Assembly: GCA_014905635.1 (NCBI GenBank)
Contig: JABVCE010000008.1
Coordinates: 806,001 to 870,000, forward strand
Length of the DNA stretch: 64,000 bases
Source of the DNA: Scenedesmus sp. PABB004
Taxonomy: Eukaryota
Direction: 5' to 3'
Shown: positions 2,549-64,000 of the stretch, piece after piece
How the letters are laid out: every line of letters begins with the position of its first letter
Position numbering within the stretch: the first letter of the stretch is position 1
Notes under the pieces: generated by a model
What the model was told of the DNA's origin: nothing
What the model saw: only the letters and a program-made list of their open reading frames with translations
Database searches by the model: none
Position numbers and translations under genes: made by a program

Positions 2549-2996
2549 TAGCGCGCGACAGCCCGCCGCAGCGGCGTGGCGTCCTCTGGCGTCGCACATG
2601 CGCGAGGGGGTCCCGCGCGAGGCGCCCAAGCTCGCGCAGCTCTGCCTCGAAACGATCGCGGCGCACGCGGAGCACCTGGTGTCGCTGGCGGGCGTGCCCG
2701 AGGAGCTCACGCTGCAGCTGCTGCAGGTGCGCGCGGGCGCGCCGCACCGGCGCGGGGGAGCGGCGGGCACGTTGCGCATGCGCCCCCGGGCGGCCGCCCG
2801 CCACCGCCGCGGCGCCCGACACCGCGGCCGCCCGCCGCTGCGACGCGCGGCGCCGTGCACCGCCAGCTCGTGCTGGCGCAGGGCAAGCTGACGCCCCGGC
2901 TCGCGGCGCTGTTCGCGGACTCCCAACACGACGCCGTGCTGGGCGCGCTGGCGGCGCTCAACCTGCGGGAGACGCCGCCGCTCGTCCCCGACAGCG
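2549..2996 (+). repeat. Direct repeat copy 2 (copy 1 at 65-508)
   Basis: Near-identical to 65-508. Confidence 0.9.
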
Positions 2997-3031
2997 AGCG
3001 GCCGTGGCTGGGCTGGGCGCGGCGCTTCTGA
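2598..3031 (+). CDS. Small uncharacterised protein (BC-box/F-box-like L..LCL..I N-terminal motif), 2 exons
   Basis: ATG at 2598, GT-AG intron after LQLLQ, ends PDSERPWLGWARRF*. Codon usage is host-like. Confidence 0.7.
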
Positions 3032-18697: not shown

Positions 18698-19783
18698 ATG
18701 GCGTCGCTGCTGGGCCAGCGCGGCGCGAGCGGCCCGCGCGCACTGCCGGCGCGGGAGAGCGCGCGCCCCGGGCCGACGAGGAGCCTGGCGATGCCCTGCG
18801 GCTGCCCTGCGCGACAGGTGAGTCGGTGTGGCCATGCACGGCCGCGCGTGGCGGCCAACCGGGTGTCCCACGAGCGGCAGCGAGCGATGCCAGGCTGCGG
18901 GCGCGCCTGCCGCCCCGCCCTCGGCCCCGCCGGCCCGCCGGCGCGCTCTGGCTTGGGCCGTGGCGGTCGCGGTCCAAACCCTGAGGCGCACGCACACACA
19001 CGCGCGGCCGCGACACGCAGCCCCGCCGCCGCCGCCACGCGCAGGCACCGCCGCAGCGGCGGTCCCTGACCATCGTGGCCGGAGAGCGGCAGTCCAGCAA
19101 CACCTCCACCAAGCGCCGGCTCGGCGGAGGCACCGGCCTGCCGCCAATCGACGGCGGGGTGAGCCGCGCGACCGCCGCGCTGCGCTCCGCCCGCGTGCCC
19201 GCCGCCGTGCGCGCCGCCCGCGCGCCCGCCGCGCTGCGCTCCGCCCGCGCGCCCTCCTCCGCGCGCCCTCCTCCGCGCCCCCGTGCGCCCCCAACCCCCA
19301 CCGCGCCGCGCGCGCAGGACGACGGCGGCGGCGGCGGCGGCGACGGCTGGGGCTGGGAGCGCACCGCGCGCAACGTGCTGCCAAACCTGGCCTTCATCTC
19401 GCTCTACTTTGCGATCACGTCCTGGGGCGGCGACGGCTGGGGCGGCGGCTTCTTCGGTGAGGGCGGCGCGCCGCGGCGGGACGTGGGGGACGTGGGCCGC
19501 GGCGCAGCGCGGCGGCCGGCGGGGCCCGACCCGTGCGCCCGCCGCACGCGCAGGCGGCGGCGGCGGCGGCGGAGGCGGCGGAGGCGGCGGCGACGGCCAC
19601 GGCGGCGGCGGCGGCGGCGGGGATGTCGGCCGCGACGGCGGCTCCAGCCTGCGCGACGACGCCAACCGCGAGCGCGCGGCCGGCGACGGCAGCAGCGAGG
19701 AGGAGGGCGAGAGCGAAGAGAGCGAGGCGGCGCCGGTCTACCACAGCAGCCCCGGCTACAACAGGCGCGACAGCTACCGCTGA
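18698..19783 (+). CDS. Hypothetical glycine-rich single-TM protein with a putative plastid transit peptide, 4 exons
   Basis: ATG at 18698 and GTGAG donors. Exons join to ...TIVAGERQSS..., DDGGGGGGDGWGWERTARNVLPNLAFISLYFAITSWGG..., and end YNRRDSYR*. Confidence 0.6.
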
Positions 19784-45083: not shown

Positions 45084-47370
45084 GGCTCGGCCGGCGGGCC
45101 CGCGCGGCCTTCACCGCCTCACGGGCTGGTCGCCGTCCCTTGCAGGCCCGGCCATCCCGAACGCGCGCCGAGCGCCGCGCTGCGCGGCCGCTGGTGGTGC
45201 TGCGCGGGCGTGTGTGCGGGAGTGGGTGCGTTTGCCGAGCTCGCCGCTGGACGCCTGCGCGGCCTGCGTGTTCGCTCGAGCGCGGACTCACTGGCGCGGC
45301 ACGCGCGCCGCGCGGCAGATCGGCGCCAGCACCGGCGAGACCGGCTGGACGCCTGCCCGCCTCTCTCTCTCGCGTCGCCAGGCCCCGGGGCGCGGCCTCC
45401 CGCGAGGCCCGGCACTCTCCCAGCGAGCGCGGCTGGCTGGGCGCCGCCGCGCTGCTGCGGGCCGCAACTCTGGACGCCCGCGGCGCGCTGGCTGCGACGC
45501 GCCGGAGGCCTTCCCTCTCTGGAGGGAACGGAACGGAATGCGAGAGCGTTAGAGTTACTCCGTGGTGGGCCTCGCTGTTGCTGTTCATGCGTGAGCGCCA
45601 GGCAAAGGTCGTGCTGCGTGCTGCGGCGCGGCGGCCGTGCTGGCCGGCCGCTGCGTGCGTTTGATGCAAGTCTGTGCTGCTGCCGCGGCGCGGCGGCAAC
45701 GGATGTGGTTGTCGCCGGCACGGGCGCGCGCGCCGCCGCCTGCTGGGGCAGGGCGGCGGCGCGCATCGTGTCAGCGACACGATGCCATGCGCGGCGGGGG
45801 CGGCTGATGCCCGCCCCGCCCGCGTATGGAAGAAGTAGAAGAAGCAAGCGGGCCTGCGCGCCAACGCGCCAACGCCCGCCAGGCCAGCGACGGGAGCAAT
45901 GCACCCCCGCCCACAACGCGCTGCCGCGGCGCCTCCGCGATCAGAGCGAAGCGCCGCGGCGCTCCTTGTCGTCCTTGGGACAAAAGCAGGCAAAGCACGC
46001 CGGGCGTGACCGGCCGCCGCCCCATTCCCCCCAGCCGCCGGTGTCGAGTCGACCGGCAGGCTCCCGCCGCACAGTCGTTAGCGCGGCGCAGCGCGGTGCG
46101 GCACGCGTGCCGCCAAGGCAGCCCCGAGCTGTTCTCCAATCAAGTGCGTGCGTAAGATAGTCCACCCCCTCCTCCTCGCGCCCCCCGCCGCACGGCCTGC
46201 GCCGGCGGCCGCGGCGGCCGTTGCCGCCGCCACCACCATACTCATCATACGCAACATACACGTCCGCTCATCAACAAAAGGGCACACTGGCGGGGTCCGA
46301 AGGCGCGTGTGTGGGGACGCAGGCAAGCGTGTGACGTGCGCGTGTGGCGGAAAGGGCCGGCCAGCAGCTGCGTCCAAAGGAATCATGCAAGTACTCTGCC
46401 GCGCACGCGCGTGCCCGGCAACGGCGTGGCCGCCGCCAACGCCGCGCGCGCGCTGCGGCCGAGCCACCGGGCCCTCTGGATGCATGCAGCACAACCGGAA
46501 ACACACAGCGACAGGGGCAAGGCAGGGCAGTGTCGCTCTCGTGGCTTGCGCGCTGCTGCTGGCGGGCGCACCAGCGCGCCCGCAGCGTAGGACGGCGCGG
46601 CGGCGGGCAGCAGGCGTATCCCTGCTGCGCCGCCGCCGCCGCATGGTGAGGGCCGCGGCGGGCAGCGCCGCCGGGCGGCCCCCTGGGCGAGCGCGGCGTG
46701 CCATCGCTGGCACGCGCGCGCGTGGTGACGCGTGGTCTCAGTGTGTCGCGCAGCAGCGCGGTGCAGCTCGTGGTATCAAGGCAGCGAAAGGGCATGCAGT
46801 GCGTCTGCGCGCGCGCGCCGGCGGGGAAGGGCCCGCGGACGCGCGCGCGCGCCTCGCGGCACCCGGCGGGCGCAGCTTGCAGCTCGCCTCGCGCGCCGCG
46901 GGGGCGTCGACCGACCTCAAACTGTGCCGCAACACCGTACTCGCGACCGCACACGCGCTGGGTGATGTGAAGATGAAGGACAGGCTTCTTGTCCGCGGGC
47001 GCCCGGCCCCGCGGCCGGGCGCGCCGCCTCGGCGCCACACACCACTCGTCCTAGAAGGGGCGCGGCGCGCACGCCGCCGGCCTCCTCGGCCGGCCCGCGG
47101 CGCAGCGCCGGGCCGAATTTTGTTGTCTGGCCAGACGGCTCAACGGCCGAGCGGCCCTCTCGCCGAAATGCCGGCCGGCGCGCGCGCGGGCGCGGCATGA
47201 ACGCCCGCGCGGCGCGGCCGAGCGTCGGAGCCCCCGTGCCCTCTCGCCGCGCCGGCGCTCCAAAGCGGGGCCCCGGCGCGCGCGTGGACCCTCTCCTCCC
47301 TCCTCCCTGCCTGCCCCCCCCCCTCTTCCCCCTCCGCCCCTCGCCCTGCCCGCGCCGCCGCGGGGCGGCA

Positions 47371-49754
47371 TCACGCCACGAGCTGCTGCTGCTGCAGCTG
47401 CGCCATGAGCAGCCCGATCACGCCCGTGAGCACGCTGTTGCCGCAGTCACCCATCTCGCCGCGGTTCACGCTGTCGACCAGCTCCGCGACGTCGCCCAGG
47501 TTGAGCGGCGCGTCGCCGCCCGCCGCCGCCGACGGCGGCGGCGGCAGCGCGTACGCCGGCGGCGGGCCGCCGCCGCCGCGCAGCAGCGCGTCGAGCCGCG
47601 CCGCGTCGGACGCGGAGCCCGGCAGCGCGCTGGCCTTGGCGGCCGCGTCGATGGCCGCGCTATCGAGGCTCTGGTAGCGCAGCGCCGCAGGCGCCAGCCC
47701 GCCGCCTGGGCTGGGCGCGCCGCCGGCGGGGCCCGACAGCGTGCGCGGCAGCGCCTGCGGCCACCACAGCGCCGCGCCGCCGGCGTAGCAGGGCGATGCG
47801 TGCGAGCCGAGCGGCGTGAAGGCGCTGCCGGCGCCACCGTCGTCGGGCGCCCACGACGCGCCCGAGCCCAGCACGCTGCTGGGCGTGGGCGAGAGCGGCG
47901 GGCTGCCGCTGCCGGACGCGCCGCCGCCGTCGCCGAGGCTGCCGCTGCCGGCAAAGCCCCCGGCGCCCAGCCCGCCGCAGCCCCAGGCCGCAGCCTTGAG
48001 CTGCTGCGCCTGGTGCGCCTGTTGCGCGGCGAGCATCGCGGCCTGGTGCGCCTCAAACTGCTGCTGCTCGCTGGCCTGGTGCGCCTCAAACTGCTGCTGC
48101 TCGCTGGCCCGCTGCGTGTGCATCACGCGCTGCTCGTGCATGAGCAGCGCGCGCTGCAGCTGCGCGTGCTGCACGGCCGCCTGCGCCGCGGCGGCGCGCG
48201 CGCGCGCCGCCGCGGCGGCCATGGGCGAGTTGGTCGGGTCGGGCACCTCCACGTCGGACGTGCTGAACAGGCAGCTGCCCGCGGCCAGCGCCGCGCCCGC
48301 GCCCGGGGGCGGCAGGTCGAGCGACGTCGCGCGGCGCGGCGGCAGCGGCGCGCGGCCCGCAGAGGGCGCGAAGCCGCCGCCGCCGGCGCCGCCGCCGAGC
48401 AGCGCCTGCTGGTCCACCGAAAAGCGGCGGAAGCCGCCGCCGCCGCGGGGCGCCGCGCTGTTTGGGCTGTGCAGCCGCGCCAGGCCGCCCGCGCCGGGCG
48501 AGGCCGCCGGCGAGGCGCAGCGCAGCTCCGGCAGCGCGCCGGACGTCGTCGCGAGGCCGGCCGCGAGGCCGGGCGCGTCCCTGCGCGCGCCGCCGGCCCT
48601 GCCGCCGCGCCGGCCGCCGCGCGCGCGCGGGCTGCCGGCGCCGGCGCCGGCGCCGGCGCCGCCGCCGTTCTGCGCGGCGCGCGGGCTGCTCGCGGCGCTG
48701 CCGGCGCTCGCGCTGCTGGCCGCGGCGCTGCCGCCGCCGGCGTGCTTCAGCTCGTCGGGGATGTTGAGGTGGCTGTGGTCGGGCACGCGCAGCTCGTCGA
48801 TGCTGTGCGCGAAGAAGCAGATCTGGCGCTTGCAGTGGCTGCCGTCGTTGTTGCGGCAGAGCTGGGTGCGGTACCTGCGAGCGCGCGCGCAGGAGGCGTG
48901 AGCGCGCGCGCAGGAGGCGTGAGCGCGGGCGGCGGCAGCGCGCGCTGGCTGCGCCGCCGCGCCGCCGCGCCGCCGCGCCCGCGCCGCCCGCACCTGCTGG
49001 GGTGCAGCCAGTACTCAAACAGCGAGTGGCAGTTGGGGCAGTCGTCCCCACGCGGGCACTCCTTGCCCTGCGGGGCACGCGCGCGGCCGAGGCGGACGTG
49101 GGCGGCGCGCAGGGGCGGCGCTGTCTACGCGTGCGCCGCGCAGGCCGCTGGCGGGTCTCTCGCCGCGCTGAGCTGGCACTCCCGCCGGCCGGCCGCCCCC
49201 GCGGGCGGTGCGCGCCGCACCTCCTTGGTGTCGGGGCAGGGGATGGCGAGGTAGGTGTAGACGCGCGGGTCGCGGCGGCGCGCCTTCTCGCCTGTGTCGT
49301 CAGCGGGACGGAGGCGGTGGCGGTGAGCGGGCGCCGGGCAGCCACGTCGTCGGCGTCGGCGGGGGGCGGGCGCGATGCGCACGTCGCCGCCCGCTCCGCA
49401 CCTGGGTGCGCCCAGGGGCAGTACGTCCACTCGTGCGGCGCGCGCTTGGCGCACGGCAGCACCTGACCAGGCGGCGAGGGCGGGGGCGGCCGGCGCGGCG
49501 CGGCGGGGGCGGTCGACGGATGCCCCAGGGTGCCGGCGCAGGCGGGGCCCCGCAGGCCGCGGCGGGCACACCTTGTAGCAGTACATGCGGAAGGCGTCGC
49601 TCTCGAACAGCTCCGCCGGCCCGTCCTCCAGGCCGCGCGCGGCCAGGCTCGCCAGCGCCTCGGGCGCGAGCTCGCCCGCCGCCGCGGCGCGGGCCAGGGC
49701 CTCGTGCGGCCCCGCATCGGGCCCCCAGGGGGCGCCCGGGAGCTGCGCCTCCAT
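47371..49754 (-). CDS. CCCH tandem zinc-finger RNA-binding protein (plant RR-TZF / Unkempt-like), multi-exon
   Basis: SDAFRMYCYK|VLPCAKRAPHEWTYCPWAHP|GEKARRRDP...CPRGDDCPNCHSLFEYWLHP..RYRTQLC...CFFAHS. Confidence 0.92.
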
Positions 49755-50084
49755 GGATGCGCAGAGTTGGCTGTGTCGGAACAAGGAGCTCGCTGGTGGT
49801 GCGGCGCCAATCTAGTCGCGCTGTGGCGGTGTCTCAATTGTCTGGGCTAGGTGGGATGCGGGTCAAGTCTCTCTCGGCGGGCTGCGGGGCGGTCGGCCTT
49901 CCGTCCTGCGAGGATCGGCGGTTCTGGGCGCATGGGCATGACGAGGCGATGCGGAGCACGCCGTGAGCGTGCTCAATGCAGGTGGCACGGGAAGCCGGCC
50001 GCGCAGGCTGGCACGCACCCGCGCGGGGGCGGCTCGGCGCGGCGGCTGTCCAGCGCCGCACCGATTCAGCCCTGGAATTCGTCC

Positions 50085-50210
50085 TGCGAACGTTACTCAG
50101 GGCACCTGTGTGCCCCTGTGTAACGCTAGCGCTTGTCCCTTTCGGGGGCGCCACCAAGCGCGGGGTTCCGACTCGGGGTCCCCCCTGCAGGGGTTCCCGC
50201 TTGGGGCGCG
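50085..50210 (-). ncRNA. Candidate Fanzor omegaRNA scaffold (three consecutive hairpins just 3' of the Fanzor stop)
   Basis: Stem 50154-50160/50198-50204 encloses the palindrome CCCCTGCAGGGG. A hairpin at 50129-50151 has a GAAA tetraloop on the minus strand. A third stem pairs 50091-50105 with 50110-50125. The element begins about 80 nt after the stop at 50285. Confidence 0.6.
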
Positions 50211-50284
50211 CTGGTGTTGGGCTTGGATGAAAACAAGTGCAAACAAGCGCGCAGCGACGGCCGCGCTGGCCCCTGTTGCTGCTC

Positions 50285-52440
50285 TCAGCCACTTAGAGCA
50301 GGGGCCAGCGCCGCCACGTCCGCCGCCGCCGCCGCCGCGCGCGCGCTCGCGTCACGCAGGACTGCCGCCGCCGCCGCGCGCCCCCCGCGCCCTGCCGCCG
50401 CAAGCTGCGCCGCCAGGCGTGGCAACAGCCGCTCGCACTGCCAGGCGCGCTCGCCGGCCAGCAGCGCCGCTGCGCCCGGGTCGCGCACCGCGCCAGCCGA
50501 CAGGCGCATCTGCAGCCTCGCGCGCGGCTCCCGCTCGACCGCGTAGTCCATGAGCCGCGCGTGGTCAGGGTGCACACGCGGCTCAAACACCTGCCGTGCG
50601 GTCTTCGCCGTGATGCAGCGCGCGCCGTTGACGTCGCGCTCGAGCGTGACGCCGCACGCGCCGCAGGCCCGCACCTTGTGCGGCGCTCGCCGGCCGCGCC
50701 CGCCGCACGCACCGCCACCTCCTGCACATCATCTAACCCAAAGCAACGACTGCAAGTGCGACTAGTTCTATACTCATCAACGTACACAAAGTGCGCGCGC
50801 GGGCCGGGCGCGCCGTCCGGCACGGCCGGGCGCCAGCCCCGAACGCAGCGCTCGAGCAGCCGCACGGGCGGCGACAACTTCCTACCTATGAAGCTCTGAG
50901 AGAGCTCCGCATTCCCCATCCCGACCACGACCACCTCGGGCAGCGGCAGCAGCTGCTGCCGCGCGCGCCAGCTGGGGTCGCGCTCGCGCGCGCTCCAGCG
51001 GCCGCCGACCGTGCAGCGCCCCAGCGCGAGCTGCTGCACAACACGCGCGAGCTCGTGCTGCGCGAGGCAGTGAGTGCGAAGGCTCCAGCGGCGCGCCGCC
51101 AGGCTGCCCAGCACCGCCTTGCCCTCGCACAGCAGCGCGGCGCGCGCGGCCGCGTGCGCAAGGTAGACATTGAGGTTTGCGGTGGCGGCGCGGCCGATGC
51201 CGGCCGCCCACTCGGCACGCTTGTCCCAACCCGTGCGCCGTTTCTCGCAACCAATCCTGGTGTGCAGCAAAGCCGCACGCCCGGTTAAAGTGCTCCGGGT
51301 GCAACTTGAAACAAAACTTGTCGCCATCCTTCCCGCTTCCCGACCGCCCGTGGTTGGCGGTGACCGCAACAAACAAGTGATTGAAGCCGGGATCTACCCC
51401 CACTATTCGGACCCCCGGCCCCGACCGCGCGTCCCCGAGCTCGGCCCCGCCATCGCAGAGAGCCCAAGGCACCAGGGGAGCAGCGATGGGGCGTGCACGC
51501 ACGTCCAGGTCGGCCGGCGCCGCCTGCCCCAGCCCCACGTCAATGTCCATCGGGTCGTCAACCCCCTGCCCGTGGAGAGGCTGCCCCCAGCACAGCTGCC
51601 CCCAAACGTCAGCACGCGCGGCATCCAGCGCCGCCGCCCGCTCCGCGCGCACGCGCTGCTGGCGCGCCGCCGCCTGGCCAGCCCTGCCGAGCGCGCGCCC
51701 CCCGGTGCCGGCACCCCCGCCGGCGGCAGGGGCGGCCGCGGCGCGCAGCATGCCTACGCTGACAGCGACGCCGTCGGTCGTCACGCGCTGCGCAAAGCGC
51801 AGCGCGCGCGAGCCGAGCTTATTGAGGTCAACAAAAAAACATGCAAAGGGATTGCCCTCCCACCCCTGGTCGGGCGCCGGCAGGACGGCCGCCGCCTCCT
51901 GCTGCGCCATATCGCGCCGGCCCTGTGCAGCTGCCGCGGCAGCTGCCGCCGCAGCAGCTGCCGCCGCAGCCGCGGCGGTGCTCGCTCCGGCCGCTGGTGC
52001 TGCCATCCCGGCTGGCGCCGGCGCTGCCGGCGCTGCCGGCGCTGCCGGCCCGGCTGGCGCCGGCGCAGCGGCCTGGGCGCTCGGCTCTGCCGGCGACTCC
52101 TGCCTGGCCAGTATGGCCAAGGCATGCTCTTGCAAGAGCAGCTGCAGTTGCATAGGCCGCACGGGCAAGTAGGATGCCCGGGCGGCGCGACTGCGGGGCC
52201 GCGCCGACACCGATGCCACCTCGGCCGCGTGCGCTGGCAGCGCAGCACCGCTGCCGACCGCTGCCGACCGCTGCGCCAGGCAGCCGGGCGCCGAGGCCCT
52301 CTGTCGCGGCCGCCGTCGCTGCCGCCGGTGCTGCGACCGCGCTCGCCGCGGCTCGCGCGCGTGCCGCAACGACCGCCGCCGCCTGCCGCTGCACCAGATC
52401 AGCAAGATGCAGTGGCTGCTCCTGCACCTGCTCCGTCGCC

Positions 52441-52525
<85 letters not shown>

Positions 52526-55500
52526 GCTGCTGCGCCGCCCGCTGGCTCCGCCTGGTCTGCGCTCCGGCTGCCGCCGGCTGCAGCGCCGGCGCCCCCGCCG
52601 GGGCGGCCGCCCGCTCTGCGACCGCTGCAGCTGCAGCCGCAACCGCGCTGTCAAACCGATGCTGCACGAGCTGGACAGGCTGCTGCACCGGCGCAGGTAC
52701 AGCCGCCCGTGCTGCAGCCCAGGCCTGCAGCTGCTCTTGCGTAGCCCGCATGGACACCGGCACGCGGGATGCCCCGGTGGCGCGACTGCGGGGCCACACC
52801 GACACCGGTGCCGCCGCGGCCGTGTGTGCGCTGGCAGCGAGGCCGCGTCGGCGAGGTCGACCGCCGCGCCGGGCTGCACGTACGGACGGTAGCGCGGCAC
52901 GCCGAGTCCGGTGCGCCGCGCCGGGCCGCCTGCAGCAATCCCCACTGCTGCCAGCCCGGCTGGCGCCGGCGACACCTGGGCGGCCTGCGCTGACGCCGTT
53001 CCCGAGGTCTGCGCGCCGGCTGCCGCTGGCTGCGCCGCCGGCGCCGCCGCCCGATCTGCCGCCACGCGTGTGGCGTGGCCCGCGCGCCAGCTCACCAGAT
53101 CTGCCGTGTTGACCGTGCATATGCCCTGAAGCAGCGCCTCCATCATGGCGCGCGGCAGCGGCACGTGCTCCATGTTGAAGCGCGGCTGCGGCGCCATGCA
53201 GAAGCGCGACTTGTCGCGGAGGTTGCGCAGCGCGGCGAGCTGGCGCGCCGCCTGCTGCGCGCCCGACTCTGCGGCGCGCAGGGCTGCCGTGGTGGCCGCC
53301 GCGAGCTGTGGCGGCGGGCCCTGCTCACGGGCCCTGTGGGCCGCAAGAGACAGTGGCTCGGCCCGCAGCGGCGCCGCCAACGCGAGGCCAGCGGCCAGCG
53401 CGTCCGCCGCGAGCGCCTGCCAAAGACGGACGAGCTGCACCTCCGCCGCCTTCACCGCCTCCGCGGCCACCGCGGGCGACGCGAGGGCGTCATCAGCGAC
53501 CGCCTGCCAGGCCGGGGGTGCAGCTCTGGGGGGCCCGGCCGCCCAGGGCAGCGCCTGGGCCGCCAAGGCTGCCGCACGCAGGTGCGCCGCTGCAGCGGCA
53601 CCCGCGGTGCGCACGGTGTGCAGGGTTGTGCGTACGACAGCAAGCTGCAGGTACTTGACTGCTGCCGCCGTTGCTGCCTCTGCCCACGCTGCTCGTGCCG
53701 CCGCCGATGTCCCCCCAGCATCTGCCTCCGCCTCCGCCACAAACACAGCCACTGCGTGTGCCCGAGTCGCCGCTACGGCAGCTGCAAGCTGCGCCGTGGT
53801 CAGGGCGACATCCGCCGCCTGCATGCTGCATGCTGCGGCCGCCAGGTGCTGCTGCAGCTGCCCGGCGGCTGCCGCCGCCTGCGCTGCCTCGGCGGGCGCT
53901 GGCAGCGTTAGGCACTCTGCTGCCTGCATTGCAGCCATGCGCTGCTCGAGCAGGCTCAGCTCTGCGTCCTTGGCCGCCACCATGCCGCGCAGCAGGTCGG
54001 CCTTGGCGGCGGCCTCCCTGCGCCGGCTCGCGCCGTGCTTCGCGCGCGTGAGCGCGTCCGGCTCGCGCCGCTGCTCCAGCGGCGGCGGCGGCGCCGCGCC
54101 CGCCGCACGCGTTGCCGCTGCCGTGCGTGCCGCGGCACGCGTCGCCGTCGAATCTTTGTCTTTCTTGCTCTGCGCCATGCGCCGCTCCAGCTCGTCCCGC
54201 TGCTGCTGGAGGCTGCCCTTGCTCGGGTTGGCGGCGCCGCACGCCGCACGGTGCTTGCCCGCCAGCACCGCCGCGGCCAGCCGCGGGTGCTGCTGCTCCA
54301 GCCCCTCAACGGGCGGCAGCAGCTCCGCGGCAACAGCGGCGGCCGCGAGTGCCTCCAGCGCGCGCGCGAGCTCCGCAGCAACCGGCCCTGCGCCGCCCTC
54401 GGCGGCCCAAGGCGCACCCGCGGCGGCGAGGGCCGGGCCCAGCGCGGGGGCGAGCGCGGTGCCCGCCCGGCGCGCGGCGGCGCGCACCCAGCCGGCGTCG
54501 TCGTGCAGCTCCATGTGCGCCAACGCCGCGTAGGACAGCGCCTGCTGCGCGCCCCACTCGCCGGGCGCAGCGGCTGGCAGCCGCGGGTGCGCGGGCACGC
54601 TGCCCGTAGCGACGACGCGAGCCGCCGGGCCGCCGGCAGGCGTCTGCTCGTCATCGTCCTCCTCGTTCTGGCGCCGGGGCGCCCTGGCCCGCTTGAAGCT
54701 GGGCGGCGCCTGCTGCTGCTGCTGCTGGCGCTGCCCCCCCCCCCCCCCCGCCGCTGCCTGCCGCTGCCAGTAGGGCTCGAAGGCCCACTCCTTGACCGTC
54801 TGCTCCCCCCTGCCTGGCACGGGCTGCAGCAGGCTGCCCAGCAGCGCCAAAAAGCCGTCGTGCAGCAGCTGCTCCGCCAGCGCCGCCTGCGCCCGGCTGG
54901 CCGCCGACGCGCCGGCCGGCGCGTCGACGGCGATGCCCAAGCAGACGCGCTCGTACAGCGGCTGCATGCAGGCCGACGCGAGTTGGTCGGCCGCCGTGCG
55001 GGGCGGGCGGGGCAGGCCGGCGCGCAGGTGCGCGGCGTCCACGAGCAGGCGCGCCCAGGATTCTAGCCGCGGCTCCCAGTCCATCACGTGTTGGACGTGA
55101 TTGACTGCCAGCAGCGTTGCAATGTCCCGGAACCACGCGCCAATCGCGTCGCCGTTGAGGTACGGCGGCAGCGCCCAGGGCTCGCCAGCGGCGCCGAGCC
55201 GCGGCAGGTACAGCTGCTCGTACACCCAGCGCAGGGCGGCAAACTCCTGGCTGTCCTGGGGGGGCCGCGCCGCGTAGGCGGTGGGCCGCAGCAGCAGCCG
55301 CAGCGCCCACACGAACAGCCAGCGGCCGGCGGTCAGGGACGCCGCCGCGGTCGCCGTGGAACGCGGCGGCGATGAACGCCTCCGGCGGCGGGCGGCCGGC
55401 TGGCGGCGGGTCAGCGTCGCCCTCAAAGATGATCTGGTTGGTGTCAAGCATGAAGGTGGTCACCAGCTGCCGCGCGTGGAAGAGGCCGTAGTTGCCGACC

Positions 55501-57512
55501 TCCACCAGCTCGCGCAGCACCGCCATGGACGCAGCGTGCTGCGCCGAGTCGGCACCGCCGCGCACCACGCCCGACAGGCTCGCTTTGATGGTTGTTTGCT
55601 CGCCGCTGCCGTCAGTCGCCGGCGCGGCCGCCTCGGCCGCGGCGGCGGCCTCGCCGCCCGGCGGCTGGGCGGCGGCGCCAGGCGCGCCGCGCTGCGGGCC
55701 GGCGTCGCCGCCCGCTGCGCGCGAGCGCTTGCCACCGCCGCCGTCTGCTCCGCGCGAGCGCTTGCCGGTGCCGCCGCTGCCGTCGCCAGCCGCCGAGCCA
55801 GGTCGTGCCCCGGCCGTGCCGTGCTGCCGCGAGCAGCAGCAGCTGCCGCCGCTGGGCGCGTCGCCGACGTCTGGCGCCTCGCGCGCAGCGCTGCGGCTGC
55901 CGTGGCTCCCGCCAGCAGGCTTGCCGGAAGCGGGAACGAAGACAGCTGCGTTGGGGTTCAATGCTGAGCAGGCGGCGACGCGCCGCCGCCCAACGGCTCC
56001 AGCGGGGGGCGCCGCGCCGCCGGCTGCCACAGCAGCGCCTGCGACCTGGCCGGCGCGCGACGCCGCGGTCGAGCCGGCGCCGCGGCCGGCGGCGCAGGCG
56101 CACGCGAGCCATGCGCACACCGCCCATACGCTGAGGATCCAACTCAGGATGCGTGCGACTGCGCCCTGCGCCCACCGCCGCGCGCTCTTCGCCGCCGCCG
56201 CCGCCGCCGCCGCGGCAGCGTCTGGCGTGCCGACCGGCGGCAGCGGCAGGGCCGCGCCGGCCTGCCCCAGCGGCCGCGCCGGGCGGCCGCGCGGCGCGAG
56301 GCCTGCCGCCGGCGCCGGCGCGCCGCCGGCGCAGCGCGCGGCGACCGCGGCCGCGCCGGCGGTGGGGAGCACCCCGCGCTGCGCGGCGCCACGCCGCGCT
56401 CGGGGGCCCCGGGCCTCGCCGACTGGTGCGGGGCCGCGCCGCGCCGCCGGGCAGCGCTTGGGCTGGGCGCCGCTCGCTGCGGCGCCGGCGCAGCCCCGTC
56501 CTGCTGCCCTGCCCCCGCCAGCCGCGATGGGCCGCGGCGACGCGCCGCCGACGGCGCAGGCGGCGGCCCGCGCCCCCGCGCGCGCATGCTTGTTGGCGCG
56601 CTCCGCGCAGGCGCGCTGCTTGGCCTCCCGCCGGCAGCGCGCGGCAGCGTGCTTGCGCCGCTGCTCGCTCACCAGCTGCTCGCGCTCGACGGCAGCGTCG
56701 CGCTGCGTCCCGAGCTTGCGCGCAAACGCTGGCAGCGCAAACGGCGCGTGCTCCTGCGGCTGGCGCCGCCGCCGCCAGCGCCCCGAGGCGCGGCGCGGTC
56801 GCCTGGCGCCGCCCCTGCCGGGCTGCTGCAGCTCCCGCTGCTGCTCCTGCTGCCGCTGCTGCTCCTGCTGCCGCTGCAGCTCCTGCCGCTCCTGCTGCCG
56901 CTGCTCCTGCGCCCGCTGCCGCAGCCGGCTGTCGGCCGCGGCGGCCGCCGCGGCGGCGGCGGCGGCGCGCGCCTGCGCGCCGCTCGCGCCCAGCTCCAGC
57001 AGCTCGCGCACGCGCTGCAGCACGCTCGCAACGAGCGTACAGGCCTCGCGCGGGCTGCAGCGCGACGCCTGCAGCAGCGCGATGCGCGCGAGCACGCAGT
57101 CGGCGCCGCGTTGCCGCAGCAGGTGCTGCGGCGCCTGTGCCTGCGCCGCCTGCAGCTCCGCCAGCAGCCGCTGCAGCTCAGCGACGGCGCCGGATGTGAC
57201 GCACGCGCTGGCAGCCGCCACCTGTGCCGGGAGGGTCGCGTCGTCCCCGCCGGCCAGCAGCGCGCCGAGCTCCCCAGCCAGCTGCAGCGGGGCGAGCGGG
57301 AGGTCCACCAGCTTGCTGCAGATGGCCGCCGCCGCCGCCACGCGCTCGCCGGCGGTGACCGCGGTGGGCCGCCGCAGCACGGGCGGTGCCTTGGCCGGGC
57401 AGCGCGGCTGGCTGCCGGCGGGGCGCGCCTTGGAGCCGTCGTTGCAGCCGCGCTGCGACGCGGCGTCGATCACCAGCCTCCGCTCGCCGGCGAGCGCCCG
57501 CCCGGAAGTCAT
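50285..57512 (-). CDS. Giant Fanzor1-type RNA-guided endonuclease (TnpB/Cas12 superfamily) with about five apparent frameshifts (assembly errors or a recent pseudogene)
   Basis: RuvC-I IVGVDPG (D at 51392-51394), RuvC-II YVDEYRTSRTCSRC (E at 50773-50775) and RuvC-III/Zn CGAC..LERDVNGARCI (D at 50633-50635). Fanzor1-like motifs TTIKASL, RFCMAP..HVPLP, FAQRVTTDGVAVSV and VVVGMGNA. Confidence 0.85.
52442..52523 (-). repeat. (CAG)n trinucleotide repeat, about 27 units, inside the Fanzor insertion
   Basis: Uninterrupted ctg run on the + strand. Confidence 0.95.
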
Positions 57513-58278
57513 CGCTGCGCGGCGATGCGAGCAGCAGCGAGCCGCACACGGTGTGAGCCGCCGGCGGGCGCTCTCGGGCGCGCCCGCGGCGGCCGCGCAG
57601 GCGGCGGCGCCGCACACCTGCCGCGGCGGCCGCCTCAGCCTACCACCGGAGGAAACCCGGGCGACGAGGCGGGCATGACGCCTGGCGGCACGGCGGCGCG
57701 GGGCGGATGAGTTGCCGCGCGCGGCGCCGGTGCGGGAAGGCCGCGCGCCCCCGGGGCGCCGCGCCGTGAACGGATCAGGCCCGGAGTGTGGCTGAGAGCG
57801 CGCTGCTAGCGCCGCAGGCGCGCTGCCGAGCGCGCGCCGGGCCTGCGGGCGTTGCGCACCCGCCTACTCCGCGCGTGCGGGCCTCGGCGGGGCGCCGCGC
57901 CGCCCTTCTGCACCCGCCTTGAGCGCAAGATCGCGGGTAGCGAGGGATCAGGGCCGTTCGCCGGCGGTGGCGGGCAAAAAAATTTGCTCGCTCGCCCGGC
58001 CGTGGGCGCGAGCGGGCGCCGCCGGCGCCGCTCGCTCGCCAGGGATTCGGCAGACCTCGAGCGCGCGGGCTCATCTGTGCGGGCAGAGTCGGCAGGGCGA
58101 CGTGGCGCTGGCGCGGCACGGTGGCGCGGTGACGGCGGCGGTTCTGGCACGTATAAACGCGTCGCGCGGCAACGTTTGCCAGCCGTCGGCGTGCCCACGT
58201 CGTCGCTCGCGACCGCCCCACGCCTCCAGGCGGGCTCACGCCGCCTGGCGCCGGCCCGCCGCCGGCCGCGCGTCAGGC

Positions 58279-59404
58279 TCACCCATTTGCCGCCGCGTTG
58301 ACGCGCCGCGCGGCCGCGCGGTAGTGGTCCACCAGGTGCGGCTGCTCAAAGCGCTGCGCCACCGCCTCAACGGCGGCCTCCGGCAGCAGCGACGATGGCG
58401 CCCTGCGGGCCGCGACGGGCGGCCGCCGGCTCGGCGGCGCGCGGGGGAGCGACGCCCCGCGTGGGCGCGGGGCCGCCGCGGCGCGGGCCCGCACCTCGCG
58501 GCGTGCTGCGCCAGCTGCCCCAGCTGCTCGTCCGGCACCCACGTCGGCAGCGGCAGCCCCGACCGCTGCTCCAGCGCCGCGTCGAGCGCCTGCTGCAGCC
58601 GCGGCGCGTCCGCCGCCAGCGCCGCGGCCCAGCTGCCCGGCCGCAGCGCGCCCGCTGGCAGCGCCGCAAACTGCGCGGCCAGCCGCGCACGCTGCGCGTC
58701 GCTGGCCAGCTGCATCGCCTCGCCCAGCGCGCGCGCGCCTGCGGGCACAGGGCGCGGGCAGGGTCAGGTCGCCGTCCGGTCGGCCCCCGGCGCAGCCGCC
58801 GCGCCGCCGCCGCACCCCTGCCGGCCGAGTAGTTTGCGGCGACGCGCCAGAGCGTGTAGTAGATGGTCACGTTCGGCAGGGGCAGCGGGATGAGCGGGAC
58901 CTGCTCGCCGCGGCGCGGCGCGGAGCGGCGCTCAGGGCGCGGTCTCCGGCGTGGACCGGCCGCGTCGGTCTTCGGCGCGCCGCGCGGCGCGCGCACCTGC
59001 GGCAGCATGGCCAGCGCCCAGACGCGCAGGCGGCTCGCGTGGAACGGCGCCGCCCGGGCGGCCAGCAGGCGCAGGCGCCGCCGCACGAGGCGCTCGGGGG
59101 CGGACGCGGCGAACGTGACCACCAGCGCGTCTGCGCTCTGCGGCAGCGCCTTGAGAAAGGTCTCTGCAGGGTCCACGCGCGCCTGCGCGGCCTGCGCCAG
59201 CTTGAAGATGCGGCCGTTGATGCTGCCCGGCGGCGCGGTCTCGAAGCGCCGCCACGCCTTGTGGACCTGCTCGCTCAGCAGCCGCTGCGCGGCGGCGCGC
59301 AGGCCGCCGCTCTGCGCCGGCTGCGGCGGCGCCGTCGTCCACGCGTGCCAGAGCCAGGGGCCGCGCCGCTGCAGGGGCAGCGCGAGGATGCGCGCGCAGG
59401 ACAT
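58279..59404 (-). CDS. Mitochondrial K+/H+ exchange-related (Mit_KHE1-like) family protein, multi-exon
   Basis: Segments MSCARILALPL, KAWRRFETAPPGSINGRIFKL..RVDPAETFLKALP and PLIPLPLPNVTIYYTLWR match this family's pattern. Confidence 0.7.
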
Positions 59405-59752
59405 GGTTGGGCGGGCGCCCGAGCGCACGACAGGTGGCGCGTGCCAGCAGCGGCGCGGCAGCGGCGTCGCGTGCGCCCGGCAGCGGCGTGGCGGGGGCAG
59501 CGGCTCCACCGTGCGGTTGTGGGGCCGCTGCGCGGAGGGCGCGGCCTGGCATTGAGGCTCGACTCGTTGAGCCCTCGCCGCCGCTGCGCCCGGCAAACTG
59601 CCGCCTTCTCGCCCCCCTGCAGCCGCTCCGCCCTCATTGCTCCTGATCGCGCCGCTGCTTGCCCTGCCACCGCTCCGCCCGCCTGCGACGAGCAGCGCAC
59701 GCCAGGGCAGCGCGCCGGCCGCTGCTGCGCAGCCGCGCTGCCGCCGGGCGGC

Positions 59753-60392
59753 ATGGCGCACCAGCGCCCCCACCACAACCCGCACCCCGCGGTCAAGGGC
59801 TACCTGGTCCTCTACAACCTCGCCCAGGCCGCGGGCTGGTCGCTCTGCCTCGCGGCGCTCGCCGCCGCGGCGGCGCGCGGCGAGGACGTGCGCGGGCAGT
59901 TTGCCGCGGGCGCGCCGTACGCGCGTGAGTGCGCCGGGGCCGCCGCGGCGGCGGCGGCGGCGGCGGCGGCGGCCTGGCGGCGGCCGCGCGGGGTCCGGCC
60001 GCCGCGGGCGCAGCCGCGGGCGCCGGGCCGTGCGCGGAGCGCCCGCCCGCCTGCCGCGCGGCGCGCAGGCTGGCTGCAGTTTGCGGCGTTTGCTGAGATC
60101 CTGCACGCCGGCACGGGTGAGCGCGGCCGGCCGGGGGCGCGAGCGGGGGCGCCGGCGCCGCGCACACACGCACGCCGATCGTCGCCCGCCCGCCCCGCGC
60201 GTGCGCAGGCATCGTGCCCAGCAGCCCGATCAGCAACTTTTGGCAGTGGCTGGGCCGTGCCAACGCGCTGTTCAAGTTTGCGGTCGGCATCCCAGAGGTG
60301 CGGGCGCGGCGGCGGCGGCGGCGGCGGCGGCGGCGTGTGGGGCTTTGTTTGGGCGCTGCTCGAGCCAGCGGCAGGTCGCTGTCGCTTCGAAC

Positions 60393-60423
<31 letters not shown>

Positions 60424-61419
60424 GCAGCTGCAGTCGGACCCTTGCGCCGTGGTCATGCTCGCGTGCTGGTCCATCGGCGAGGTGCGCCGCCGCGCGCGCC
60501 TGGCTGGCGCTGCCGCCGCAGCGTCCGCGGCCGACGCGCCGCGCGCACGCGCGCCGCCGTCGGCGCTGCCGCATTGGCCCCTTGTGCCCCGCCCCCCCCC
60601 CCCCCTGCCGCCCTCCCAGATGATTCGCTACCCCTGGTACGCCCTCACCCTGCTCGACGCCTGCCCGCACTGGCTCACCTGGCTGCGGTGAGCGCGCCCG
60701 GCCCGGCGCCGCCCGCCGCGCCCTCCCCCGCGCCCCCGCGCTCTCCTCCGCCCCCCCCCCCCGCGCCGCGCCGCGCCCTCCCCCGCGCCGCCGCGCCCGC
60801 CCCGCGCCGCGCCGCGCCCTCCCCCGCTGCGCACGCGCGCCCGCCCGCGCCGCGCCGCGCCCTCCCCCGCGCCGCCGCGCCCGCGCCGCGCCGCGCCGCG
60901 CTCTCCCCGCGCCGCGCACGCGCGCACCGCGCACGCCCGCGCCCGCCCGCCCGCCCTGCCCGCCCGCTGGTGCTCCGCCCAGGTACACCGCCTTCCTCGC
61001 CCTCTACCCCGCGGGCGTGGTCGCGGAGATGGCGCTGCTCTGGCGCGGCGTGCCGCTCGTGCGCACGCGCGGGCTCTACTCCGTGGCCCTGCCCAACGCC
61101 TGGAACTGGGCCTGGGACTACGCGCGATTCATCGAGGCGCGACGCTTGGGGCTTGCGCTGGGGCGGCCGCGCGCCGCGCCGCGCCGCGGCTGCGTGGCGT
61201 GCTGGGCTGCCGCGCCAGGGCGGCCGCGCCAGGGCGGCCGCGCCGCCGACCGCGCCGCCGCCGTGCGCCCGCGTGTCCCCCCAGGTGATGCTGGTGCTCT
61301 ACCCTTACTTGTGGTGGGGCAACTTCAGCAGCCTGCTGCGCCAGCGCGGGAAGCGGCTCGGCCGCGGCGGCGCGGGCGCTGCCGCTGCTGCCGCCGGCGC
61401 GCGCGCCAAGGAGGAGTGA
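59753..61419 (+). CDS. PAS2: Very-long-chain 3-hydroxyacyl-CoA dehydratase (HACD/PASTICCINO2, PTPLA family), multi-exon
   Basis: Segments YLVLYNLAQAAGW, LQFAAFAEILH, WSIGE|MIRYPWY, WLTWLR|YTAFLALYPAGVVAE and a basic tail RQRGKRL. Confidence 0.9.
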
Positions 61420-61787
61420 GGTATGCCGGGGTTACCCTCGCGCCCGCGAGTGCGCGAGCTCTCTGCGTTGGTGGCGGCGAGACGCCCTGCAGGGCCACAC
61501 CGCGCGCAGGCAGCCGGTGGCGGCAAGAGAGTCGGGACCGCCGCGGCCGGACGGATCCGAGCAGCTTCAACAGCAGCGGCACGTCGTCGCCGGGAAAACC
61601 GCCGCCGCCGATCGCAAACGCTCGAAGATTGAGTTCAAGTCGCGCCCAGCCTCACACAGATGCAAATGCAGCGACACACACACGTTGGCGCGACGGGGCA
61701 CCAACTGGCGGCGGTGGCGGCGGCGGCGCTGGCCGGCAGCGCCGCGCGCGCGCCCGCGGCGGTCGCCCCTGCGCGCAGCGCAGCCGC

Positions 61788-63661
61788 CTAGGGCTCGCGG
61801 GCGGCGGCCTCCTCGGCGGCCTCCTCCTCCGCGGCGACGGCGCCGGCCAGCAGGTCCAGCGCGGCCACGGCGTCCTGCTCCGCCGCGCCCGCGGCCGGCT
61901 CCGCCGCGCCCTGCTGCGCCTGGGCGCCCGCCGCCAGCTGCGACGGGGCCAGCTGCGCCTCTCCGGCAGCGGCCGCCACCGCCGCCGCTGCCGCTGCCGC
62001 AGCCGCGGCCACGACGGCCGCGGGGTCCGCCAGCTGCTGGCTCGCGCCCGCCCCGCCCGGCGGCGGCGTCGCAGCAGCGGCGCGGCAGCGGCTGCGGCGG
62101 CGGCCACGACCAGGGGGTCAGCCGCCGCGCCGCCCGCGCCCACGGGCACGCCCAGCTCTGCCGCCGCCGCAGCTGCGGCAGCCGCGGCAGCCGCGGCGGC
62201 GGCCGCCAGCCCCGGCGTCGCGGCGCGCTCCTCCTCCGCCGCCGCGGCCGCCGCGGCGACCGCCAGCAGCGGCGTCGCCGCGCGCTGCATGCCGGCGGCC
62301 AGCCCCGGCGTCGCGGCGCGCTCCTCCTCCGCCGCCGCGGCCGCCGCGGCGACCGCCAGCAGCGGCGTCGCCGCGCGCTGCATGCCGGCGGCCATCGCGG
62401 CGGCCGCCGCTGCCGCGGCCGCGTCCCCGGCGGCGCCGCCTTGGCCCAGGAGCTCGAGCAGCGGCGGCGTGCGCGACAGCAGGCCCGCCCAGCTGCCCTG
62501 CATGTCTGACAGCGCCGCCGCGAGCTGCGCGCCGCCGAGCCCCTCCGGCGTGGCCGCCCTGAAGAGCGTCGCCAGGTCAGCGAGCCCCAGGGGCGTGGGC
62601 GGCCGCGCCTCGTGCAGCTGCAGCGCCGCGGCGATGCCCGGGTCCATGCCAGCGTCCCCCGCCCGGCTGGGCGGCTTGCCCCCGCCGCGGCTGGGCGGGC
62701 GGTGCGGGTCGGCCGGCAGCGGCGGCAGCGGCGGCGTGCCTGCGGCGCGGCGGCGGCGGCGGCGCCGGGCAGCGGGCGGGTCGGGGAGGGTTGACCGCTC
62801 GCTGCCGGCGCCGGACCCGAGGCGGGCCCGCCGCGCGAGCACCTAGCAGCGCCGCCGCTGTGCGCGCGGCGCTCACCAGAGGGCAGGCCACCAAAGAGAG
62901 GCATGAGCAGCCCGCCCAGCGCGTGCTCGCTGGCCAGGCCCTGCACGAGCGGTTGGGGCTGTCCGCGCCGACCCTGCGCCACCGCGGGTGGGCGGCGGCG
63001 GGGTCAGTGCCGTTGGGCGCAGGCGGCGCGCGAGCGCGCGCCGCAGCCCCCCCCCCCCCACCTCCCTCCCAGCGCGCCGCGCCGGCCGCGCGCACCGGTG
63101 CGCCGCCACCAGCTCCTCGCCGTCGCCCGACGCGCGGCGCGGGCCGGCGCCGCCGGCCGCCCGCGCGACGGCGGCGCGCCGCAGCATCGTGGACGGGTGG
63201 TGCTGCTGCGCCCCCGGCGCCTGCTGCTCCAGCTTGACAGCCGCCGGCTGCGGCCCCGAGCCCCAGTCCGGCGGCTGCTCGCCGCCGGCGGGCCGGGCGC
63301 TGTTCTTCCGGGCCACGCTGCGCTGCACCAGCGCCGGCGGCCCGCCGCCGTTGGCGGCGGCGTGCTCGGGCCTGCCCTCGGCGCCCTCGCCCGCCTCGCC
63401 GCCCTGCCACTTGGGGTGGCCCGGCAGCACGGCCGCGGGGTGGTGGCGCCCGGCCCCGCTCGGGCCGGCCGCCGCGCCCTCGCCGCCCTCCGGCGGCTCG
63501 CCCGCGCCCGCGCCGCCGCCCGCCAGGGCGGGCAGGCCGCGGCCCCACTTCTCGGCCGCCTCGCGCGAGCGCCGCGGCGCGCCGCCGGCGCCCCGCTGGC
63601 GCTTGTTCACCTGCAGGGAGCCCTGCAGGTACAGCAGCAGCACCGGGTCAATGTCCACCAG

Positions 63662-63694
<33 letters not shown>

Positions 63695-64000
63695 GGCGCC
63701 GCCGCCGCCGGCGGCGTGCGGCGCCAGGCCGTTGCCGAGGCCCGCCCAGCCCGCGGGCGGCGCGTGCCCGCCGGCCGCCCACGCGGGCTCGCCGCCGCCG
63801 CCGCCGCCCTGCGTGCCCTCGCCGGACAGCGCCGACGGCGGGCGCAGCCCCGCCGACATGGCCGCCAGGTTCTCCGCCGCGACGAGCGCGCCGCTGCTGC
63901 CGTGCGCGGCGGCGAGGCCCTTGCCGCCGCCGGGCCCCGGGCCGCGGCTGCTGCCCAGCTGCTCGCCCTCCGCCGGCGCGCCGCCGGGCACGTCCACGCG
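61788..64000 (-). CDS. Hypothetical low-complexity protein, 3' part only (continues beyond the window)
   Basis: Coding-like frames 62873-63997 and 61652-62842, GT-AG introns, and a final frame ending AEEAAAREP* at 61788. No domain recognised. Confidence 0.5.
62205..62390. repeat. Perfect in-frame 93-bp tandem duplication (31 aa, AGMQRAATPLLAV...EEERAATPGL)
   Basis: Copies at 62205-62297 and 62298-62390. Confidence 0.9.

Follow-up and report, generated by a model that had tools for sequence, protein, structure and literature searches.

Locus and gene content

The window analysed here, meaning the whole 64-kb stretch of DNA, has a GC content of ~79%, and the alga that hosts it is ~80% GC. That the host is a eukaryote follows from the gene content of the contig, which carries eukaryotic genes including split AICARFT/IMPCHase exons, NOMO, an NF-Y histone-fold gene, a plastid-type MinE, and a plant-type CCCH finger. 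Two freshwater DNA metagenome runs (X1 and X2) contain parts of the window; a look-up of sequencing runs for 49600-51600 found none of RNA. On the minus strand lies a Fanzor gene whose conserved blocks are distributed over two reading frames, and the next gene after it on the same strand is a CCCH zinc-finger frame (49846-48089). The end of the Fanzor gene and the non-coding sequence behind it are occupied by a series of hairpins, three of which had been proposed to encode the omegaRNA of the nuclease (Table 1).

Table 1. Coordinates of the Fanzor gene segments, the hairpins and the candidate element end, in positions of the window
Feature	Position	Strand	Evidence
N-terminal (WED-like) homology block	53212-53075	-	tblastn of P0003 residues 436-481: 39% identity, E 1e-6
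Fanzor frame 1: 'TTDG' block and RuvC-I Asp (IVGVDPGF, ~51410-51385)	51925-51248	-	P0001, P0003, P0005 and P0006 align, 30-50% identity
Fanzor frame 2: helical insert, Gly at canonical RuvC-II Glu (VVVVGMGNA), alternative Glu, first Cys pair (VYVDEYRTSRTCSRC)	51246-50728	-	homologue alignment
Fanzor frame 1 again: second Cys pair, RuvC-III (CGACGVTLERDVNGA), C-terminal tail, stop TGA 50287-50285	50689-50285	-	homologue alignment
Hairpin 0: perfect 13-bp stem (50311-50299 / 50275-50263), 23-nt loop	50311-50263	-	13/13 inverted match; in MFE and centroid of both strands
T-rich spacer closed by alternative 7-bp stem (50252-46 / 50212-06)	50252-50206	-	MFE and centroid
Hairpin 1: 7-bp outer stem, CCAAGCG (50204-50198) / CGCTTGG (50160-50154)	50204-50154	-	sequence, folding
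Hairpin 2: GCGC-C-CCC-GAAA-GGG-ACAA-GCGC, 4+3 bp	50151-50129	-	sequence; -11.0 kcal/mol folded alone
Hairpin 3: CGTTAC-A-CAGGGGCAC-ACAG-GTGCCCTG-A-GTAACG, 6+8 bp, one bulged G, loop ACAG	50125-50091	-	sequence
Mini-hairpin: TTCG-CAGGA-CGAA, 4 bp (first 13 nt of the proposed guide 50090-50071)	50090-50078	-	folding
Compositional boundary, GC ~0.55-0.70 to 0.87-0.93, with allelic 4-nt indel; candidate element end	50064-50058	.	

A divergent Fanzor gene with a rearranged RuvC site

Judged by its motifs, the minus-strand gene is a true but divergent Fanzor with the rearranged RuvC site typical of that class. The IVGVDPGF block with the RuvC-I Asp matches the T/VGVDPGC block of P0001, P0003, P0005 and P0006 in the alignment. 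At RuvC-II, VVVVGMGNA aligns to AIVGLGNAS of the homologues and has a Gly in place of the canonical Glu; an alternative Glu (VDEYR) follows 49 residues after that Gly and is near-invariant in the family alignment (E402 of P0001). This is the arrangement described for Fanzors, in which the canonical Glu gives way to an inert Gly or Pro and another conserved Glu follows ~45 residues on (PMC10530073). The Fanzor motif has further been described as a [TS][TS]-x-x-C4 zinc finger followed by RD (Bao & Jurka 2013, PMC3627910), and the gene possesses a finger of the form TSRTCSRC ... CGAC followed by ERD, with its two halves in different frames of the window copy. The WED-like block sits further upstream, inside a 1525-codon open frame (55459-50882).

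The reading frame of the window copy is not intact. It is interrupted by two frame breaks, one near 51244 and the other between 50728 and 50690, and we may therefore be looking at a relic. A GT..AG 'intron' of 23 or 38 nt would mend the second break arithmetically; both look too short, the 38-nt version deletes a conserved HK, and we consider either unlikely. A codon-position GC pattern (GC3 0.85-1.00, GC2 0.45-0.85) continues to ~50340. The periodicity of coding sequence is lost at the stop at 50287, and what follows is aperiodic and lower in GC.

The family to which the gene belongs is small and divergent. Six relatives at E <= 0.001 came from the protein library of 1.84 billion representatives, and a profile search of the library returned 12, none of them named in either case. 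Word-indexed protein searches with the window ORF found no match at near lengths or at longer ones. Against Pfam PF07282 the window piece reaches 17.8 bits, below the cut-off of 26.3. In the family alignment, which comprises 16 rows (13 library relatives, one cluster member and two pieces of the window's own gene), 12 rows match PF07282 at E <= 0.01, with a best E of 1.3e-6. PF07282 is also carried by the nearest Atlas cluster, which is from Chlorophyta. A profile search of the PDB gave five weak matches (E 0.04-0.6), namely to Cas12f, the mimivirus TnpB-like L79, SpuFz1, and a 'Transposase' chain (8hr5). An AlphaFold2 model of P0001 built from the 16-row alignment had a mean pLDDT of 39.5, too poor for a fold search.

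A five-stem module over and behind the stop codon

The original prediction had placed three back-to-back hairpins, spanning ~115 nt, just downstream of the Fanzor stop, and this core is present as described. Hairpins 1 to 3 together span 114 nt and begin 80 nt behind the TGA at 50287-50285. The CCAAGCG...CGCTTGG helix does enclose two small stems, CCCC-TGCA-GGGG and a second one, within an interior of 37 nt; the pairing of CGTTAC with GTAACG in hairpin 3 was recovered with one bulged G; and the GNRA-type GAAA loop of hairpin 2 exists, as had been stated, on the Fanzor-sense strand only, the plus strand reading UUUC. The extent of the cluster, given as 50060-50230, covers these three hairpins but is too narrow for the module as a whole, since the 13-bp stem of hairpin 0 lies outside it. 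A scaffold start at ~50210 likewise leaves out this stem over the stop codon. With hairpin 0 and the mini-hairpin added, the structured module measures ~235 nt (50311-50078) and not 115 nt; it has five stems and starts 24 nt before the stop.

The loop of hairpin 0 contains both stop codons, TAA at 50295-93 and TGA at 50287-85. Behind it, the T-rich spacer carries the region's only TTTT (50233-50230), and its 7-bp stem competes with an extension of hairpin 1 that is seen when 50230-50060 is folded. Hairpin 3 with its immediate surroundings (50126-50086) folds alone to -21.1 kcal/mol; on the plus strand it includes TGTAA, the green-algal poly(A) signal, at 50119-50123. The module as a whole occupies the only non-coding lower-GC stretch behind the Fanzor gene.

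Where the structured sequence ends bears on the proposed junction between scaffold and guide, which had been put at ~50088 with the guide in the next 15-20 nt. That position found no support: low GC continues to ~50060, and the 'guide' 50090-50071 itself contains a hairpin. In 30-nt windows, GC over 50060-50104 is 0.53-0.57, against 0.87-0.93 in the flank below ~50058. Two candidates for the junction are thus at hand, 50091/50090 at the end of hairpin 3 and ~50060 at the GC step and an allelic indel. A contig of run X2 (228 nt, 100% identical) likewise stops at 50091, which at a depth of 2.4 may be mere coverage. Low GC, the further hairpin and the allelic indel together suggest that the element runs to ~50060 instead.

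Folding strength of the module and of the window

We compared the predicted folding energies with those of dinucleotide-shuffled sequences. On the minus strand, 50230-50060 folds to -78.8 kcal/mol against -63.6 +- 4.0 for 200 shuffles, none of which was as good (z -3.76), so the proposed cluster does fold better than its shuffled controls. The plus strand of the same segment gave z -3.17. For the larger segment that includes hairpin 0, z was -4.32 on the minus strand (50320-50055) and -4.84 on the plus strand (50055-50320), and in each of these folds, too, 0 of 200 shuffles were as good. Six other low-GC segments of 266 nt from the window, folded on both strands (12 strand-folds), ranged from z -1.90 to +2.32, compared with -4.1 on both strands for the target.

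The stems are all Watson-Crick palindromes, equally able to fold on either strand, and G-U pairs make up 7 of 89 pairs for the minus strand against 7 of 94 for the plus strand, so that only the GAAA loop assigns an RNA to the Fanzor strand. That the plus strand folds as well or better, and that a comparable cluster occurs elsewhere (45701-45900), are observations that speak against an omegaRNA.

We also asked how the module ranks within the window. In a first sample of 64 positions on both strands, two of 128 folds reached z <= -3.76 and four reached z <= -3.17, one of the four overlapping the module. Two competing windows of this sample, at 19001 and 45001, which had looked structured by 25 shuffles, dropped to z -2.07 and -1.41 once they were refolded against 200 shuffles, using a 221-nt frame that began 21 nt earlier. 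A full scan then covered the 64 kb in 639 windows of 200 nt, of which the best 24 were re-scored with 50 shuffles; this direct re-scoring replaced a regression-based z-scan, which was dropped because its residual SD of 8.6 kcal/mol was twice the shuffle SD. Four other windows reached z <= -4, at 60301, 52001, 45701, and 38101. Two of these are triplet-repeat palindromes. The window at 45701-45900 contains a back-to-back three-hairpin cluster of mixed sequence (45725-45830), which does not resemble the module in sequence and has no Fanzor in its vicinity. Where the fixed-phase scan windows interrupted the stems of the module itself, they scored only z -0.65 to -2.0. The module therefore ranks with a handful of other stretches as the most structured in the 64 kb, and is not the sole one.

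Alleles of the locus in metagenome runs

An X1 allele covers 49625-50307 at 98% identity, with seven substitutions and 12 gap letters. Within the module it differs at four places, all in the interior of hairpin 1 at 50165-50179 (two substitutions, a 1-nt deletion and a 4-nt deletion). None of the outer stems is affected, and the energy of the fold stays the same (-78.5 compared with -78.8 kcal/mol). Just outside the module, the X1 contig has ATGA inserted behind 50063, which is the 4-nt indel at the candidate element end. Leaving aside the 37-nt interior of hairpin 1, the non-coding part of the module shows no differences in 170 nt, against eight events in 453 nt of the downstream flank. The flank rate predicts about three differences, and the Poisson probability of none is ~0.05, a post hoc figure that gives a weak hint of constraint on the module. 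The two indels and two substitutions by which the interior of hairpin 1 differs between alleles speak, for their part, against an omegaRNA.

A second X1 contig, 99.8% identical, bears on the broken reading frame. It has five extra bases behind 51243, after which the frame, read by hand, continues like that of the homologues (W-L-x4-R-x-G-[FW]). Intact and broken alleles thus seem to co-exist, unless the window assembly is wrong at this point. Run X2 contributed a single good piece. The many contig 'joints' that the runs appeared to give were set aside as artefacts of GC repeats, their sides being 20-24 nt long with 80% likeness.

Searches for further copies, element ends and known RNAs

The 64-kb window holds no second copy of the module, and no related locus was found in the viral, metagenome or genome contigs scanned; one match in a metagenome contig was spurious, with no likeness to the Fanzor family. 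A search for terminal inverted repeats found none. For an inverted-repeat partner of 50055-50215 in 52000-64000, we counted 36, 9, and 1 shared 9-, 10-, and 11-mers against 36.8, 10.8, and 2.85 in shuffles, so none exceeded chance. No Rep or helicase domain was present among 123 scanned reading frames of at least 300 aa, nor was a transposase domain, TnpA included, found among the scanned reading frames. An Rfam cmscan of 49000-52000 (E <= 1) gave six weak matches, which all fall at 51894-51979, outside the module, and ARAGORN found no tRNA.

Comparison with known guide-RNA systems

In the prokaryotic TnpB systems of IS200/IS605 elements such as ISDra2, the omegaRNA comes from the right end of the transposon and overlaps the 3' end of the nuclease ORF, and the guide is taken from the flank. 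The module resembles this arrangement as a candidate non-coding RNA at the 3' end of a nuclease gene that overlaps the end of the ORF. It differs in its eukaryotic host, in reaching ~200 nt past the stop, as has been noted for Fanzors, and in the lack of TnpA or defined ends at this locus. Overlap with the stop codon is optional for omegaRNAs, which arise from the transposon end region (PMC10432273), and the fRNAs of Fanzors are described as reaching further past the ORF than those of TnpB and as overlapping the right inverted repeat of the transposon (PMC10530073).

The closest algal precedent is CrFNuc-1 of Chlamydomonas reinhardtii, a Fanzor1c that is carried in Helitron2 elements and has its fRNA in the 3' UTR (Jiang et al. 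2023, PMC10530073). According to the same source, that fRNA was seen by small-RNA sequencing, is conserved in six gene copies and 20 solo copies, and stabilises the protein. Both loci have a green-algal Fanzor in a long, low-complexity, multi-exon-like gene with a candidate RNA of stable predicted fold behind the ORF. In CrFNuc-1, however, the RNA was observed, whereas the module here is a candidate template, and no Helitron2 ends were found around it.

The omegaRNAs of solved Fanzor1 structures measure 150 nt with four stem-loops (GtFz1), 90 nt (SpuFz1) and 75 nt (PpFz1), a range of 75-150 nt and two to four stem-loops overall, with an SL1 of 7 bp in each (Xu et al. 2024, PMC11423790). The module likewise places several stem-loops 5' of a proposed 3' guide and has a length of the same order, and the outer stem of hairpin 1 is 7 bp like SL1. 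This last match may be coincidence, since the stem closes a branched interior of 37 nt and not a simple loop. If hairpin 0 is included, the module is also longer than the solved RNAs (~220-235 nt).

Interpretation and alternative explanations

We tentatively read 50311-50078 as the non-coding module that closes a Fanzor-carrying mobile element at its 3' end and serves as template for an omegaRNA (fRNA) scaffold, an assignment that we regard as a good possibility, falling slightly short of probable. It rests on the Fanzor identity of the gene, the position behind its stop, a fold beyond that of shuffles, a fitting size and the allele comparison. The omegaRNA proposed in the original prediction is thus borne out as regards a real Fanzor just upstream, a low-GC non-coding site and a suitable number and length of stems; the equal folding of those stems on both strands counts against it. 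We infer that the site yields an RNA bound by the protein and that the minus strand is the one that matters. The module would be transcribed with the minus-strand Fanzor mRNA or as its 3' UTR. Hairpin 0 would fold over the stop codon, followed by hairpins 1 to 3, and the RuvC/TNB and WED surfaces of the Fanzor protein would bind the folded RNA. The guide would consist of the 15-20 nt after the last scaffold stem, drawn from the DNA just beyond the right end of the element, and might direct cleavage of copies of the site that lack the element.

The palindromes could instead be signals at the DNA level for the 3' end of the carrier transposon, for example hairpins recognised on single-stranded DNA by a Helitron2-type Rep/helicase, with no separate role as RNA. 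Green-algal Fanzor1 genes do sit in non-autonomous Helitron2 elements (PMC3627910, PMC10530073), so palindromic hairpins near the 3' end of a Fanzor1-carrying element in green algae have a ready parallel; such a role would also suit stems that are perfect Watson-Crick palindromes and fold as well on one strand as on the other, and the element may end near 50060, where GC is low and the alleles differ by a 4-nt indel. The Helitron2 3' end is described, however, as a single hairpin in the last 20-30 bp, preceded by an asymmetric terminal inverted repeat of 8-15 bp that pairs with the 5' end (PMC3627910), whereas the module has five stems over ~235 nt and no asymmetric partner above chance in 52000-64000, although a 5' end could lie outside the window. 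Together with the absence of Rep/helicase among the 123 frames of at least 300 aa, this makes a purely DNA-level function improbable in our view. It would also be compatible with an RNA made from the same sequence, given that fRNAs overlap the right inverted repeat of their transposon (PMC10530073).

Another explanation dissociates the hairpins from the nuclease altogether and takes them for intergenic or UTR sequence with structure of its own, or for a small foldback repeat, that lies between the Fanzor and the CCCH gene by accident. Such structures are not rare in the window, which contains 285 short-range inverted repeats and, among 639 windows, four at z <= -4, one of them the three-hairpin cluster at 45725-45830 without a Fanzor. 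The plus-strand TGTAA inside hairpin 3 points the same way, as does, weakly, the TTCATC that flanks hairpins 1-4 in the X1 allele, because ~9 such 6-mer repeats are expected by chance per 270 nt by our estimate. An accidental neighbour is nevertheless unlikely, if to be taken seriously: we estimate a chance of a few percent for such a cluster within ~300 nt of the single Fanzor stop, hairpin 0 straddles that very stop codon, six other low-GC non-coding-like segments are unstructured, and the module bears no sequence likeness to the cluster at 45.7 kb. Chance palindromes, for which a window of ~79% GC full of inverted repeats would seem favourable ground, are a very unlikely source of the stems, as none of the 200 dinucleotide shuffles was as good in any of the four folds, the stems are mixed in composition and not GC-only repeats, and controls of like GC were unstructured.

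Implications for algal Fanzors

For a 3'-terminal omegaRNA module, the class, the position behind a Fanzor and an algal precedent are already in print. A bolder proposal, which we put forward as a long shot, is that the five-stem module serves two uses in an undescribed, highly divergent green-algal Fanzor lineage, its DNA acting as a terminal recognition structure and its RNA as an unusually long omegaRNA scaffold, with intact and broken copies of the nuclease co-existing in a natural population, to which the 5-nt indel that restores the frame in one allele would then testify.

Should the module prove not to be an omegaRNA, the locus would be a decaying Fanzor copy beside ordinary GC-rich hairpins. 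If the omegaRNA reading is right, it would provide a guide-RNA candidate for a Fanzor lineage that lies below Pfam's own threshold, has only about a dozen uncharacterised relatives in public protein collections and comes from a eukaryote of extreme base composition. The few algal Fanzor systems, of which the one tested, CrFNuc-1, bound its RNA without cutting, would gain a further member, and the module, being compact, would lend itself to testing how one set of palindromes can be shared by an RNA scaffold and a transposon end.

Sequence context of the Fanzor locus

The window contig is of nuclear eukaryotic type, with genes split by introns and with long poly-Ala, poly-Gln and poly-Ser tracts. 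Its GC content is 73–85% in each 2-kb window and ~79% overall (1–64000), which to our knowledge exceeds that of every published algal nuclear genome. The hairpin module, a candidate omegaRNA template, sits between the stop codon of the Fanzor, an RNA-guided nuclease gene on the minus strand, and the next gene downstream, a CCCH zinc-finger gene on the same strand. Within the Fanzor gene, an open low-complexity stretch has a counterpart of ~30 residues in the protein homologue P0003, and includes a run of ~30 Ser codons and poly-Ala as well as two internal direct repeats. This stretch may represent introns or a repeat expansion.

Structured sequence was also present elsewhere in the window. Three mixed-sequence hairpins, arranged back to back and including a perfect 8-bp stem (ATCGTGTC/GACACGAT), did not resemble the Fanzor 3' module in sequence, and no Fanzor lies near them. 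Runs of the triplets (CGG)n and (GCC)n in inverted orientation, ~55 nt apart, gave a predicted 37-bp stem.

Coordinates of genes, repeats and structured features in the window (z, fold energy relative to shuffles)
Feature	Coordinates	Strand	Measure
Direct repeat at start of window, ~450 nt, spacing 2.48 kb	65–514 / 2549–3002		91–97% identity
Cluster of three hairpins	45725–45830		z −4.4 (200-nt window over cluster)
Gene with plant-type CCCH zinc finger, AtC3H23-like	48089–49846	minus	E 1.7e-8
Low-complexity stretch in Fanzor gene	51925–53075		~1.1 kb
Internal direct repeat	52160–52234 / 52755–52829		83%
Internal direct repeat	52554–52611 / 53006–53063		84%
(CGG)n/(GCC)n runs	60301–60430		z −5.1

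Possible boundaries of the Fanzor 3' module

Assembled contigs from two freshwater DNA metagenome runs, X1 and X2, were compared with the locus. One X2 contig (228 nt, 49864–50091, 0 mismatches) stops precisely at the outermost base of hairpin 3 (50091). Its depth is only 2.4, so a break in coverage, and not a branch between filled and empty alleles, may account for this end. In X1, a 4-nt insertion at 50063–50064 creates TTCATC on the 3' side, and the same hexamer occurs at 50226–50231, right after TTTT at 50233–50230. Hairpins 1–4 are therefore bracketed by a 6-bp direct repeat in the X1 allele, a match of a length for which several are expected by chance in a region of such size.

TGTAA is the poly(A) signal of green algae. 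It occurs seven times in the window, against 3.2 expected, and at least three of the seven (5799, 7092, 19992) have a listed low-GC window no more than ~100 nt away. One copy lies within hairpin 3, on the plus strand (50119–50123).

Allelic variation in the Fanzor gene

A 5-base indel at 51243–51244 separates the window from a 99.8%-identical X1 contig. The longer X1 allele leaves the Fanzor frame open and homologue-like; the window allele is frameshifted. Between a second contig from X1 and the window, 19 of 191 bases (10%) differ at 50437–50627, compared with 0.2–2% for the neighbouring X1 contigs. Six of the 14 changes listed for it are synonymous when read in the Fanzor frame; between them, the 14 produce six amino-acid changes. 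This second contig may derive from a paralogous copy or from a diverged haplotype.
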